Made by a program: the position numbers and the translations under genes. A stretch of 21,074 bases of DNA, taken from a virus (taxonomy: Duplodnaviria > Heunggongvirae > Uroviricota > Caudoviricetes). This document shows, in pieces, positions 10,523 through 14,713 of this stretch. The stretch is from the IMG/VR virus record IMGVR_UViG_3300000358_000077; one strand, 5' to 3'. The notes beneath the pieces are model-generated. The model saw nothing but the letters and a program-made list of their open reading frames with translations, ran no database searches and was not told the DNA's origin. The first letter of the stretch is position 1. Each line of letters starts with the position of its first letter.

Positions 10523-10878
10523 TTTGATGGTTATCTCGAAAACATCCAATCAAATTTAATGGTTTGCTTTGTGCGGGGAACTATAACAATGTTTCTAGCT
10601 TGGTGCTGTATGAATTAGTGAATTAGTAGGGAATATATCCACACATTGATTAACACAAAAATATTTCAGATATTAAATGTAACTCAAAGGATGAGTAATA
10701 ATGGTTGTGTAGCGTATAACAGGATGCTGAGGTAGTATTAAACAATGAATAAATCTGATTGACAAGCACCAGATAATACTGCGGGTCAATCATTAGACAT
10801 GAACGCCACTAGTTACTGAGAGTAACTAATGGCGTTGTGTTTATAGTTAAGATGTTTTTTTAAAACATCAGGGGGGCT

Positions 10879-12426
10879 CTACTTGTCTTTTTTAATATGT
10901 TCAATCTCATCATTAAGACATTTATCTATTTTTTTTATTAACACATTAATTTCTTCGGTGTTTTGGAGTTGAGTTGTCTTAGAAACAAAAACTCGAATAA
11001 AGAATTTAACATAGTGATAGGGTTGAAGTACATCGTTATACTTACATAAATCATTTATTGTATACTTGCCGCCTGTTTCTTTTTTTATTATTTTAGCTTG
11101 ACTTGTATCGATATCTTTAAAGTTATCTTCAATCTGAAAATCAAGAACCCATTCATCTCCTTTTAAATTATCCTCAATGATTTTGTTGATTTTCTTAGAT
11201 ATATTTTGTTTATATTCTTTGTATCTGTTGTCGGAAATGTTAACATTAGAAAACGTGTGTTTTTTTTCATATATTTTTTTCCAAACATTTCTATCAACAA
11301 TATCTTGAATTATAGCTTGAGAATTTTTATCTAATGTGTTTTTAAGAGTGTTTTCTAAAAACGTTTTGTCTGGGTTTTCACGATAAAAGTGTTTGATGGA
11401 CTCAATGAGAGTGTTTTTAGATTTTAAAGAGACAACATCATCAGTTTTTTTTCTAGAACACGCTTTGTTAAGCATCGCAGATAGTGCACGATTGGTCTTA
11501 TGAAAATAAACTTGACTATAAAGCCCACTTCTTGCATTGGCAAATTCTAGTATTGAATCCATACCACTTTCTTTATATGCCAGGTAAACACTATTTTCAA
11601 CTTTCACAGGAATAAATGACATTAATAATCGTCCATAATCATAAATCCCATATTTAACGCCGGAGAAGTAGCTATCTCTAAGTAGGTAGTCCATTCTGTC
11701 CGCATCTATAGGTGAAGATGATATGATTGAACCTAATAAAGGATATACATTTACTCCCTCAATGTTATTTTTAAAATCATATCTTTTATCAACAATTTTT
11801 ATAATGCTTTCTGGATTAATAGCCGCTATGTTTTCTTTATAGATATCGTCGTCATTTGATTTATCTTGGGCTTCATTTTTTAATTCTTCAATAATTTCTT
11901 TAATAAAAATACATGATACTTGTTCGTGGGTTAACTTGTCATTATCACTTAAAGATATAATCTTATCGTATTGTTTATTTCCTTCAGTTTTGCATTTTTC
12001 TTTGAAATCTTTTACGGATATTGCAAAACTATCGAATTGGTGGGCAAGTGGGCCATGCCCAACATCGTGTAACAATGCTGCAATACGTAACTCCTGTATA
12101 AGACTTGAAGGCATTTTTTTTATATCTAAATATAGATCAATGCCCATATTTTTTCGGTCATAAATTAATGCATTCAAATTTATATTTTTCAAAATCTCAT
12201 ACGATAAATGCATTACACCGACAGAGTGTTCAAAGCGAGAGTGCATTGCAGAAGGAAATACTTTATATAGAAACGTGTTCTGCCTGATATCTCGTAGTCG
12301 TTGGAATAAAGGATGGTCAATTATCTTTTTTTCTAGCTTAGTTATTCGAATCACTCCATGTATGGGATCTAAAAACTTCCCCAGAAGTAAGTCTTCAAAG
12401 TTCTCAAGTTTGTTTTTGTTTGTCAT
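10879..12426 (-). CDS. SAMHD1-like HD-domain dNTP triphosphohydrolase (dGTPase family), 515 aa; candidate anti-phage dNTP-depletion protein
   Basis: HD-domain motifs PLFQRLRDIRQ, HSRFEHSVGV, AALLHDVGHGPLAHQFD and DADRMDYLLRD match SAMHD1/Dgt-type signatures. ATG at 12426..12424 with AAGGA upstream. Gene is AT-rich by eye and antisense to the surrounding early-right operon. Confidence 0.8.
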   Translation of the reverse strand: MTNKNKLENFEDLLLGKFLDPIHGVIRITKLEKKIIDHPLFQRLRDIRQNTFLYKVFPSAMHSRFEHSVGVMHLSYEILKNINLNALIYDRKNMGIDLYLDIKKMPSSLIQELRIAALLHDVGHGPLAHQFDSFAISVKDFKEKCKTEGNKQYDKIISLSDNDKLTHEQVSCIFIKEIIEELKNEAQDKSNDDDIYKENIAAINPESIIKIVDKRYDFKNNIEGVNVYPLLGSIISSSPIDADRMDYLLRDSYFSGVKYGIYDYGRLLMSFIPVKVENSVYLAYKESGMDSILEFANARSGLYSQVYFHKTNRALSAMLNKACSRKKTDDVVSLKSKNTLIESIKHFYRENPDKTFLENTLKNTLDKNSQAIIQDIVDRNVWKKIYEKKHTFSNVNISDNRYKEYKQNISKKINKIIEDNLKGDEWVLDFQIEDNFKDIDTSQAKIIKKETGGKYTINDLCKYNDVLQPYHYVKFFIRVFVSKTTQLQNTEEINVLIKKIDKCLNDEIEHIKKDK

Positions 12427-12785
12427 GAGGCTTTCCTTTTGCTGTAGTTATAATACGAAATTTAAATAGTAATGATGTTTATAGTTTCAATGTGTTATCT
12501 AATGGTTAACACATTGTGATGTAGCATATCAATATGGATTCATATGTTCAATTGGTCTGTGGAGTTTAGTTATGAATAAGATTGATTCTGGTAATACTTT
12601 GTAGTTTAAGCTAGAGGCGGGATTCGTGATGTTCAAATCAGTATGTAATGGAGGTTGTGCATTAGTACTTGCTGCTGGAAATTAAAAATAAAGTTGCAAG
12701 TAATCGACGTTTTCCGAGAGGAGGATGTAAGCATCGCTGACCAAAAAGTATCAACGATGCCTGTTTTGTTTTAACTACAAATTAA

Positions 12786-14084
12786 TTAAATTGCATCTGC
12801 AAACTCTGTGATTTTTCGCTCAAGTATGATTGATGAGTTGCTGTTGTCGATTTTTTTATTTTCATGATTACGAATAGCCAATGACTCATTAAAGTCTTTT
12901 GCGACTGCTGTCTCAATAAATTCAATTTCTGAATCAGAGTGTTTTTTAACAGCTTCTTTGATCTCATCCAGAGTAACATAGAAAAACTCTTTTCTACGAT
13001 TTACAAGATTGACTCTCTTTTTATCGAAGACATCATGTAGTTTTTTTTCTAATGATGGAGCGTCCTCCGAATAAATCATGGCATGCACATCAAAAATAAA
13101 AGGAACAGATGCATCACCAAGCTCATTTACACGGTCTTGTGGATCAAGACGTCGTGTCATGCCTATTTTATAAACATTCTCCCCAAAAGAACCTATGTTC
13201 GAAATAATATAAACATGACCTTGTTTGGTTTGTTGTGCCATGGATAATGCTCTTTGATGCTTTGATTCAGCCTGCGACAAACTCTGTTCTAGTTCGGCAA
13301 TGCGATTTTCGAGGCGCTGCTTCATGTCACCAGTAACTTTTTCCATTTCCTTTCTTGCAGCTTCAATTGCTTTTTTATAACGGCGCTCTTCTGCCTCTGC
13401 GTCTTGCATGGCCTTTTCTATTTCTCGTTGTGCACGCTCCTCCTCTCTCATTTGTGCCCTTATTTCTGCCTGTTCTTCTTTTTCTTTCTGTTTTTGCTCA
13501 CGATATTCATGGGTAAGCCACAACTCCTCAAGTTTTTTATTAAGGTATTTAGTATTTATATATATGTGATTTTGCTCGTTTAGTTTATTTATGGCCTCAA
13601 ATGCCTTTGTGATGCGTTCTTCCATTTTAGTGATATTTTTCCACGTGCAATTACTAATTGCAGCATCACATTCATTATTAAATGCTCTAGTAGTTAGCCT
13701 AATATTTCTGTCTGTCATTTTTTTACCCTCTGCTCGAGAGCCTTCAACAGTCCATTGGGTTGTGCAATATACTGCACCAGAGTGGGTTTTATCCCGCAGC
13801 ATTAATTTCTGTTCATCCCTGATGGATTTTATTTTGTTTTTAAATTGCTCTGAATCTTCAAAATTAAAATGAGGTTCGTAAAATCCTAGTTCGGCTAGTT
13901 CAACATCTTCTGAATAAATAGAAATTTGCTTTACTAGCTTATCATATATTTCTTTCTTCTCTTTATAAGTTCTTCTTAGTTCTTGGATTTGTTTATTGAT
14001 ACCATCCATTTTTTCAATGGTGTTTGTTAGTTCATTATTGGCATTTTCTTTTACTTTTGGGACTCTTCTTTTATAATGGAGCAT
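12786..14084 (-). CDS. Coiled-coil protein with C-terminal T5orf172 / GIY-YIG-like domain (DUF4041-like architecture), 432 aa
   Basis: C-terminal segment GHVYIISNIGSFGENVYKIGMTRRLDPQDRVNELGDASVPFIFDVHAMIYSEDAPSLEKKLHDVFDKKRVNLVNRRKEFFYV fits the T5orf172 pattern. Central region is highly charged coiled coil (EEQAEIRAQMREEERAQREIEKAMQDAEAEERRYKK...). ATG at 14084..14082. Confidence 0.75.
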   Translation of the reverse strand: MLHYKRRVPKVKENANNELTNTIEKMDGINKQIQELRRTYKEKKEIYDKLVKQISIYSEDVELAELGFYEPHFNFEDSEQFKNKIKSIRDEQKLMLRDKTHSGAVYCTTQWTVEGSRAEGKKMTDRNIRLTTRAFNNECDAAISNCTWKNITKMEERITKAFEAINKLNEQNHIYINTKYLNKKLEELWLTHEYREQKQKEKEEQAEIRAQMREEERAQREIEKAMQDAEAEERRYKKAIEAARKEMEKVTGDMKQRLENRIAELEQSLSQAESKHQRALSMAQQTKQGHVYIISNIGSFGENVYKIGMTRRLDPQDRVNELGDASVPFIFDVHAMIYSEDAPSLEKKLHDVFDKKRVNLVNRRKEFFYVTLDEIKEAVKKHSDSEIEFIETAVAKDFNESLAIRNHENKKIDNSNSSIILERKITEFADAI

Positions 14085-14287
14085 TCTTGCTCTGTTTTCT
14101 CAATAAGCTTCTTACATTCCTCTTCCACATTAAAATAATCTGCAAAGCGAGATTTGTATTCTTCATTTTTTTGATTGCTATCACTTAATTCTAATTGTAT
14201 TTTTTTGATGCGTTTGATTGCAGCTATATATAGAACAAGAACAACCAATAAAAATATGATTGCAAGTAATAGTGGAGTTTGAGTCAT
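14051..14287 (-). CDS. Small protein with N-terminal transmembrane helix, 78 aa, overlapping the start of the T5orf172 gene
   Basis: ATG at 14287..14285 with AAGGA upstream. N-terminus LLLAIIFLLVVLVLYIAAI is hydrophobic, followed by a charged helix. Overlaps the 432-aa ORF by 34 nt in a different frame; could be a separate partner gene or the N-terminal part of one frameshifted gene. Confidence 0.5.
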   Translation of the reverse strand: MTQTPLLLAIIFLLVVLVLYIAAIKRIKKIQLELSDSNQKNEEYKSRFADYFNVEEECKKLIEKTEQECSIIKEESQK

Positions 14288-14713
14288 TCGTGCTATTCCT
14301 TACGGACAATTTAAGACGTTTTGTATTAAATCCTGTTCAATGTGTATGCGGGTGATTGCTACCGCTTACAATCTTCATAATTATCAGTTAGATAGACTCG
14401 CTAGTAAATAATTTCATTTTTTGCAATATTCTTATTGAATATTTCAATTTATGAAATGAACTCTTTATCCTTTCAAGGCGAAAGGTTTCTTCTTCGGAAA
14501 TATTTGCTCTCGTGTGACGTATAAAGGCCTTTGATTTTTAAAAAACAGTAGGGAATAATATAGTTACTGTCGGCCTGAACACCCGGCGGTGGGGTTGCGC
14601 TAAACGGGGACGTTTATGCGCACATACAATCTAAACTCTCTTCTCCCTTCACAGATGCAGAAATGCACCTGCGATTTTTTGCATCCAACGTTTGACCTCT
14701 GCGGAGGTGAAGC

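Follow-up and report, generated by a model that had tools for sequence, protein, structure and literature searches.

A lambdoid prophage island carrying a frameshifted SNIPE gene and a SAMHD1/EF1143-type HD cassette between ren and ybcN

The stretch of viral DNA analysed here, IMG/VR record IMGVR_UViG_3300000358_000077 (Caudoviricetes; 21,074 nt, hereafter the window), covers the early-left to packaging part of a lambdoid prophage inserted beside icd, and it carries an AT-rich island between ren and ybcN. The best explanation, to which we assign a probability of roughly 0.7, is an accessory island of composite make-up, located in the variable ren-ylcH/ybcN slot and built of two independent cassettes lying antisense to the pR operon. 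The first cassette (12724-14595) corresponds to SNIPE, whose intact form is membrane-anchored and cuts siphovirus DNA on injection; a 1-nt deletion here splits the anchor from the nuclease, the remainder would be poorly translated, and protection would be lost. The second cassette (10770-12661) encodes an HD-domain enzyme that is predicted to hydrolyse deoxynucleoside triphosphates (dNTPs), probably in an oligomeric form that nucleotides activate, as with the human antiviral enzyme SAMHD1 and with EF1143. This enzyme may starve superinfecting phages of DNA precursors, acting as a stand-alone nucleotide-depletion defence carried as prophage cargo. Each cassette would have its own promoter, active in the lysogen, and after induction antiterminated transcription from pR would work against both. 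The locus is a genuine defence island that is mostly already explained, as it combines an inactivated known system with a plausible new relative of a known class.

The ren-ybcN slot and its two cassettes

The initial annotation had described an AT-rich insertion of about 4.2 kb between ren and ninB as a defence island of lysogen-type morons. The insertion itself is borne out: about 4.1 kb of DNA separates the end of ren (10522) from the start of the ylcH-like open reading frame (ORF) at 14616, compared with a ren-ninB gap of 73 bp in lambda, in line with the spacing of well under 100 bp given in the initial annotation. The G+C fraction (GC) of 10523-14615 is 0.33; it is 0.50-0.54 in P, ren and ybcN and 0.46-0.48 in the 5-kb segments flanking the island. 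The AT-rich insert is a real physical feature, far above chance. Nucleotide identity between lambda P-ren and the window is 93% up to 10503, where lambda homology stops (approximately). The right flank was misnamed: the gene in the ninB position is a phage-82/DLP12-type ybcN (NCBIfam PRK09741, E=1e-82) preceded by ylcH, and its Pfam NinB score falls under the family threshold. As for the island as a whole, its reading as moron-type defence cargo is largely right: one of its genes does belong to a validated defence system, SNIPE, although this copy is broken, and the defence role of the HD protein is presumptive. The features of the island and its immediate flanks are as follows.

10226..10522, plus strand: ren, left flank of the island (RefSeq label 'protein ren')
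10523..10769, no strand: left junction and filler; 10523-10544 is common to phage PhiR26_1, and the sequence is HD-module-specific from 10545
10545-12723: HD module, absent from PhiR26_1 in a comparison with that phage
10770..12661, minus strand: portable HD cassette, with 78-80% nucleotide homology (blastn) to single-gene inserts in Serratia and Proteus
10802..10869, minus strand: stem-loops downstream of the HD stop codon (10851-10869, plus a 16-bp perfect stem at 10802-10836)
10879..12426, minus strand: 515-aa HD gene, intact; HD domain and C-terminal lobe, no SAM domain
12523..12555, minus strand: HD upstream block, near-invariant across genera, CCAATTGAACATATGAATCCATATTGATATGCT
12724 to ~14595: SNIPE module, common to PhiR26_1
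12729..12762, minus strand: SNIPE 3' stem-loop, a 13-bp hairpin past the stop codon, at the module boundary 12724 (z=-3.72)
12786..14287, minus strand: SNIPE (PD-lambda-1) gene, 500 codons if intact, frameshifted in the window
12786-14084, minus strand: 432-aa ORF, with DUF4041 at ~13533-13697 and a GIY-YIG/T5orf172 nuclease at ~12942-13220
14051-14287, minus strand: 78-aa ORF, the 5' piece of SNIPE, holding a transmembrane helix at residues ~4-25
14055..14058, minus strand: lesion site; the A5 run of intact alleles is shortened to A4 (CCCAAAAAG to CCCAAAAG)
14288..14615, no strand: SNIPE upstream region and right junction, common to PhiR26_1
14616-14717, plus strand: ylcH-like 33-aa ORF, right flank, directly before ybcN
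14714-15169, plus strand: ybcN, right flank, occupying the ninB position

The island holds minus-strand ORFs of 515, 432 and 78 aa, antisense to the O-P-ren operon and thus, as first described, to the pR early operon. Their number and coordinates stand, but they represent two genes instead of three, the 78-aa and 432-aa ORFs being the parts of one frameshifted SNIPE. The other ORFs of at least 40 aa in the island are short overlapping or spurious ones, and the sole ORF in 10523-10769, of 47 aa, is probably spurious.

The cargo at this position differs among viable related phages. PhiR26_1 carries SNIPE and Rha, PhiR5_1 carries small ORFs and Rha, PhiR30_1 carries an acyltransferase and a lipoprotein, and the slot of lambda is empty. 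The ren-ylcH/ybcN slot is therefore a variable cargo site and not part of the phage core. Conserved core status of these genes in related phages, which would have spoken against an island, was not found: of 5,426 complete Escherichia coli genomes, 131 carry the SNIPE module and 21 the HD module (3,697 genomes matched at least part of the 5.1-kb query, island plus flanks). The arrangement resembles the moron and defence slots of temperate phages (lambda rexAB and bor, the P2 hotspots and the DLP12 ren-ybcN cargo), in which similarly AT-rich, independently transcribed genes occupy a fixed intergenic slot; as in those slots, the island genes run antisense to the lytic operon and the contents differ among related phages. 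Within the literature library that was searched, no paper was found that identifies the ren-ybcN/ninB slot as a hotspot of defence genes.

PhiR26_1 has two copies (3989-4077 and 5923-6011 of its extracted locus) of an 89-bp segment that lies directly upstream of ylcH/ybcN (window 14596-14684), and these copies bracket an extra Rha-containing module. This segment looks like a recombination joint for cargo swaps in the slot. A repeat search of the island detected no att-like or terminal repeats bounding the modules, only short AT-rich chance matches, and an Rfam search of 10300-14900 returned no RNA family at E<=0.1.

The SNIPE gene and its one-base deletion

The initial annotation had noted domains recurrent in anti-phage systems. 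Hidden Markov model (HMM) searches with Pfam and PADLOC (2023 PADLOC-DB release, which has no Ogmios model) recovered the SNIPE domains and the PD-Lambda-1 profile, as well as an HD domain in the 515-aa protein. The 432-aa ORF matches PADLOC profile PDLC03976 (PD-Lambda-1) with E=3.8e-190 over positions 83-484 of 491, and the 78-aa ORF matches positions 1-80 of the same profile. Pfam matches of the 432-aa ORF comprise DUF4041 (1e-19), T5orf172 (5e-17) and MUG113 (1e-19). Residue 414 of intact alleles is E, in agreement with the published catalytic E414, and the PSLEKKLH motif is kept in the window ORF. The gene occurs as a single 500-aa coding sequence in the prophage of strain 730V1 (99.3% identical) and in PhiR26_1, a viable phage whose annotation names it 'PD-lambda-1'. 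The broken gene is, with near certainty, SNIPE/PD-lambda-1.

PD-lambda-1 of E. coli was reported by Vassallo et al. 2022 (PMC9519451), and it was renamed SNIPE and characterised by Saxton et al., Nature 2026 (PMC13190303). A single N-terminal transmembrane helix anchors the protein in the inner membrane, DUF4041 binds DNA, and the GIY-YIG domain, with E414 as its catalytic residue, cuts the DNA of a phage as it is being injected; a version lacking the helix comes off the membrane, attacks the host's own chromosome and is strongly toxic (PMC13190303). By itself, SNIPE protects against phage (PMC9519451, PMC13190303). The window gene encodes essentially the same protein, with an N-terminal transmembrane helix, DUF4041, a GIY-YIG/T5orf172 nuclease with E414 and 500 aa when intact, and is likewise carried by lambdoid prophages. 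It differs in that the frame is broken after codon 77, and the helix and nuclease are not one polypeptide. SNIPE is a known system, already published and named in RefSeq and phage annotations, and most of the island's novelty is gone with it.

The lesion is a 1-nt deletion after codon 77, following which the upstream frame ends at a TAA (14051-14053); the two resulting ORFs overlap at 14051-14084. The transmembrane helix (mean hydropathy up to 2.97) lies wholly within the 78-aa fragment, and the nuclease has been moved to the other frame, leaving no membrane anchor on the nuclease polypeptide. The initial annotation had credited all three ORFs with their own Shine-Dalgarno sites. This is correct for the HD start and the true SNIPE start, which each have an AAGGA, but the ATG of the 432-aa ORF has none.

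The missing base falls in a homopolymer, a classic error site, and it could be that the deletion arose in sequencing and that SNIPE is intact in the source organism. The run is just five bases long, however, and complete genomes of independent origin, from New Zealand and the UK, have the same 78-aa and 432-aa products in their annotation. Both frameshift ORFs were likewise called in strain HH45, and the exact products are found on 145 (78-aa) and 127 (432-aa) public contigs, drawn from several sources. We consider a sequencing error highly improbable and have high confidence that the frameshift is real. Apart from the missing base, the gene is identical to the intact allele carried by E. coli 2 HS-C, and the whole 4.07-kb island differs from that of 2 HS-C by 4 mismatches and this one gap. 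In 2 HS-C (NZ_CP038180), the HD and intact SNIPE island resides in a heavily decayed DLP12-type remnant at tRNA-Arg/intD, with a truncated bet directly abutting the island; the cargo has outlived the phage.

Since the anchor is uncoupled from the nuclease and the 432-aa remainder has no Shine-Dalgarno site, SNIPE here is most likely a very recent pseudogene that would give no defence, and we judge it probable that the gene is non-functional in the window. A contrary possibility is that the frameshifted gene still works, either through a -1 slip on A-AAG before the TAA that restores the full length, or through cooperation of the split transmembrane and nuclease fragments. The sequence at the lesion, CAA-AAG-TAA, places a lysine codon after an A and before a stop, and contexts of this type favour P-site slippage in E. 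coli; moreover, the gene is otherwise free of lesions and the allele is widespread (~130-145 contigs). On the other hand, the A4 run is short and is accompanied by no obvious stimulatory structure, and the spread of the frameshift allele follows that of a single HD allele or lineage (108 contigs), so that clonal descent explains it. In addition, the 432-aa ORF lacks a Shine-Dalgarno site, and the published protein without the transmembrane helix was toxic and not protective (PMC13190303). SNIPE has also been destroyed independently by IS1 or IS5 in relatives, which argues that its loss is tolerated or favoured. Continued function of this allele is very improbable.

The interruptions in relatives comprise IS1 (in TB354, in Evo1 and in one contig with both frameshift and IS1) and IS5, and they indicate that loss of SNIPE recurs. 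This repeated inactivation by frameshift, IS1 and IS5 hints at a cost of SNIPE. An apparent excess of SNIPE disruption in the presence of HD (6/21 versus ~2/50 sampled; Fisher p=0.007) was not relied on, because clonal descent of the frameshift and duplicate strains make the events phylogenetically dependent.

A SAMHD1/EF1143-type protein on a portable cassette

The intact gene of the island encodes the 515-aa HD protein, for which Pfam returned the HD domain and a weak HD_assoc_2 match. Against PDB sequences, phmmer aligned human SAMHD1 (E ~4e-26) over residues 19-430, and the bacterial proteins EF1143 (Enterococcus faecalis), 2hek (Aquifex) and 2q14 scored from 1e-22 to 4e-30, with EF1143 and 2hek at 1e-26 or better; no Dgt, CloA or Sp-dGTPase chain appeared among the PDB sequences at E<=1. 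The AlphaFold2 model had a predicted local distance difference test score (pLDDT) of 87.8 and a predicted template-modelling score (pTM) of 0.89, and its best 50 Foldseek matches in the PDB were all SAMHD1 (human, fungal 9MR6 and nematode). These alignments extended over ~515 columns with TM 0.6-0.7 and E ~1e-16, and they covered the C-terminal lobe.

Among 34 homologues, down to 42% identity, the residues R64, H67, H120-D121, H124, H129, H167-E168, D241, D243, Y247, D251 and H309-K310 are invariant. We take these to correspond to the SAMHD1 residues R164, H167, H206-D207, H210, H215, H233-E234, D309, D311, Y315, D319 and H376-K377. K17 and Q42-R43-L44-R45 are also invariant, and D37 is the majority residue only; from the alignment and general knowledge of SAMHD1, these presumably match K116, Q142-R145 and D137 of allosteric site 1. 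The protein thus shares with SAMHD1 and EF1143 a full-length similarity of sequence and fold, including the HD lobe and the C-terminal lobe, and with SAMHD1 the conserved equivalents of the catalytic and allosteric-site-1 residues (that of D137 in the majority only). In contrast to SAMHD1, it has no SAM domain, at an identity of 21-23%, and in contrast to both proteins it has two segments (135-227 and 325-424) that vary strongly between alleles.

Identity as a Dgt-type defence dGTPase was considered and rejected, as the family HMM scores were insignificant and no Dgt chain of the PDB was matched. The PADLOC dGTPase model gave 16.7 bits (E=9e-4) over a 75-residue stretch (59-133), and TIGR01353 gave 23.4 bits against a cut-off of 152. 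One homologue has a gene for a Dgt-type defence dGTPase as its neighbour, and phmmer showed no similarity between that dGTPase and the 515-aa protein. Sequence comparison places the protein in the SAMHD1/EF1143 clade and not in the Dgt clade, and its conserved residues make it probable that it is a dNTP triphosphohydrolase.

Two HD alleles exist in E. coli, differing at 78 of 515 residues with the differences clustered in 135-227 and 325-424, and the SNIPE DNA beside the two alleles is ~100% identical. Nei-Gojobori ratios of nonsynonymous to synonymous substitution rates (dN/dS) were 0.07 for residues 1-134 and 0.01 for residues 228-324 (dS ~0.5), compared with 0.35-0.60 in the two variable segments. 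The catalytic core is under strong purifying selection, and its low dN/dS implies that the enzyme is maintained by selection. Positive selection could not be demonstrated, dN/dS never exceeding 1, and the pattern is one of mosaic recombination and relaxed constraint; from their sequences, the alleles are recombinational mosaics.

The homology shared across genera comprises the HD gene, ~235 nt upstream and ~110 nt downstream. Within the upstream part, the block at 12523-12555 reads TTGAAC, 17 nt, TATGCT, with a partial ATATG/CATAT palindrome, and it is kept in E. coli, Serratia and two Proteus species; we regard it as a candidate promoter or operator. The fold downstream of the gene has a minimum free energy of -36.9 kcal/mol (z=-5.65; 0 of 200 shuffles as stable) and no canonical U-tract. 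These stem-loops are probably a transcript end or stabiliser, and may act as a terminator.

HD and SNIPE could be imagined as one obligate two-gene defence system, given that the HD module adjoins SNIPE in the ren-ybcN slot in all 21 E. coli genomes that carry it, across two HD alleles 78 residues apart. This reading is already largely refuted and very unlikely. SNIPE alone protects (PMC9519451, PMC13190303), 110 of the 131 SNIPE-bearing genomes have no HD module, and HD is intact where SNIPE is broken. The two genes are 359 nt apart, with a hairpin and the HD-specific upstream block between them, and a search of 67 HD-homologue loci from other organisms turned up no SNIPE-like gene within 10 kb. 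HD and SNIPE are two autonomous, self-contained cassettes.

The HD module was not found in any sequenced phage. Klebsiella 'phage' records with HD homologues were rejected as evidence of phage carriage, because the predicted prophage ends overshoot the integrase into a fixed chromosomal locus. A strict peptide-pattern scan of contigs missed Vibrio cholerae and was not used for prevalence. The genomic settings of the homologues are diverse. In Serratia, the homologue is a single-gene insert after proBA; in Aeromonas, it lies within a small island; and in V. cholerae, a 44% identical homologue is a cassette of the superintegron array among toxin-antitoxin cassettes. In Proteus, it stands beside CBASS (CD-NTase and Cap15) in an icd-adjacent island. 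The Proteus mirabilis island (17563-bp locus) shows three icd-fragment duplications and, besides CBASS and the HD homologue, has YaaC, mSLOG/DUF4326, DUF488 and DuOB genes; it shares with the E. coli prophage insertion the same chromosomal landmark, icd. PADLOC analysis of 146 neighbour ORFs at 15 gammaproteobacterial loci detected Lamassu, DarTG, a Dgt-type dGTPase, PDC-S48 and an Aga nuclease. The defence genes near HD homologues are suggestive of a defence context.

HD enzymes that deplete nucleotides form a recognised class of defence systems (PMC12265719, PMC13519002), which includes Clover, composed of the CloA dNTPase and the CloB nucleotidyltransferase (PMC12265719), and Vdg, a Dgt-type anti-phage dGTPase (PMC13519002). 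With the Dgt-type dGTPases (including Sp-dGTPase and Vdg) and with Clover, the 515-aa protein has in common membership of the HD superfamily, a predicted depletion of dNTPs, a likely shared logic of starving phage replication, and occurrence as single-gene or small accessory systems on mobile elements. It differs from the Dgt-type enzymes in belonging to another clade, and no CloB-like nucleotidyltransferase gene, the partner that Clover has, was present among the island ORFs. Dgt-type anti-phage dGTPases were reportedly also described by Tal et al. 2022. A further parallel by description is Ogmios, an anti-phage HD/dGTPase-like integron cassette of V. cholerae N16961 (bioRxiv 10.1101/2024.07.02.601686; 10.64898/2026.03.17.712381). 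Both are single-gene HD-domain cassettes missed by the DefenseFinder dGTPase model, and the V. cholerae homologue is also a superintegron cassette. In contrast, Ogmios has a reported BLAST-level similarity to the Dgt-type dGTPases of DefenseFinder, and one of its homologues is predicted to be hexameric. This description, on which the comparison is based, points to the Dgt clade for Ogmios and away from the SAMHD1 clade. The V. cholerae cassette homologue of HD, checked for a link to Ogmios, carries no N16961 accession. In the literature library, no paper was found tying this HD clade to defence.

We lean slightly towards the view that HD gives anti-phage protection. The principal rival is a non-immune enzyme of dNTP-pool housekeeping or fitness (for example, lowering dNTPs in non-growing cells or affecting the mutation rate) that is carried as cargo. 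The closest solved bacterial relatives (EF1143, 2hek and 2q14) are chromosomal enzymes, many homologue loci have no flanking defence genes, and the K. pneumoniae homologue, which belongs to a cluster of 3,530 member sequences, keeps a constant place on the chromosome (LysR, SDR, HD, DJ-1), its 'phage' records being due to boundary overshoot. However, the E. coli gene is rare, AT-rich and placed in a prophage slot beside a proven defence gene, and close homologues are found in a CBASS island and an integron cassette array. E. coli furthermore has Dgt for housekeeping, and nucleotide depletion by HD enzymes is already a defence class (PMC12265719, PMC13519002). A housekeeping role is accordingly unlikely, but it is the most serious of the rivals.

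Several points weigh against a protective island as a whole. The K. pneumoniae homologue is a fixed chromosomal gene and not on a mobile element, and EF1143-type enzymes are chromosomal dNTP-pool regulators, both of which fit a non-immune role. Defence genes occur near a minority of HD homologue loci only, as counts without a formal enrichment test, and no experimental anti-phage phenotype could be linked by sequence to this HD clade. Consensus promoter and terminator scans were at chance level (16 promoter sites versus 18.8 expected, and 3 terminators versus 2.8 expected, from shuffled sequence), and expression of the cassettes in the lysogen is presumed. Finally, low-level recoding or re-initiation could yield some SNIPE product.

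A further-reaching proposal, which we offer tentatively and hold at somewhat less than even odds, is that the 515-aa protein is the first member of an anti-phage family that acts alone and comes nearest, among prokaryotes, to SAMHD1. On this view, a mobile dNTPase activated by nucleotides, and separate from Dgt, Clover and possibly Ogmios, would travel among prophage slots, defence islands and integrons. The hypervariable surface segments of the protein would be shuffled by recombination, perhaps evading phage inhibitors, and it would be the only working defence of the island after the loss of SNIPE.

Other prophage genes and meaning of the island

Outside the island, two further features locate the window within the prophage.

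1-1143, minus strand: integrase, at the left end of the window; the terminase region forms the right end
6849-7577: cI-like repressor (Peptidase_S24 and helix-turn-helix)

A 317-aa ORF (5834-6787, minus strand; ~38% GC, AT-rich) lies directly downstream of the cI-like repressor, the position at which lambda has rexAB. It has no Pfam domain; PADLOC scores it as a member of PDC-S42, a candidate defence family (E=3.4e-86), and it is probably a second defence moron of the same prophage. A YdaT_toxin-domain protein is encoded at 7904-8449 (plus strand), between the cro/cII-like region and the replication gene O. Downstream of the lysis genes, a Bor/Iss-family lipoprotein gene (18456-18797, minus strand; a serum-resistance moron) and a TonB_C-domain ORF (19176-19556, plus strand) represent further lysogenic-conversion cargo.

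The window contains four runs of 60-76 N (1450-1525, 9400-9473, 15670-15729 and 19977-20049), and the island region is free of all of them. The run in rusA has a 12-nt duplicated overlap at its flank, and the rusA ORF measures 144 aa compared with 120 aa in relatives. An apparent 72-bp insertion in rusA was rejected as an artefact of the 60-N masking run plus the 12-nt overlap; the N-runs are masking or scaffolding artefacts, not biology. In some carriers of the island, neighbouring prophage genes are decaying too: antiterminator Q has an internal stop in E. coli 23AR0806 (the Q ORF of the window, 16187-16876, is intact), and ren is frameshifted in E. coli SCU-111.

The broken SNIPE allele is a warning, as gene-by-gene or domain-based annotation would score the island as SNIPE-bearing despite the severed essential anchor. 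The ren-ybcN slot is worth mining for cargo of lambdoid prophages, and the HD cassette was assigned to no system by the PADLOC release used. If HD protects, SAMHD1-style immunity would reach a bacterial clade that has the catalytic and allosteric architecture of SAMHD1 on a mobile cassette, and the cassette would offer a tractable system for studying how the host and the resident prophage are protected from allosteric dNTPases.

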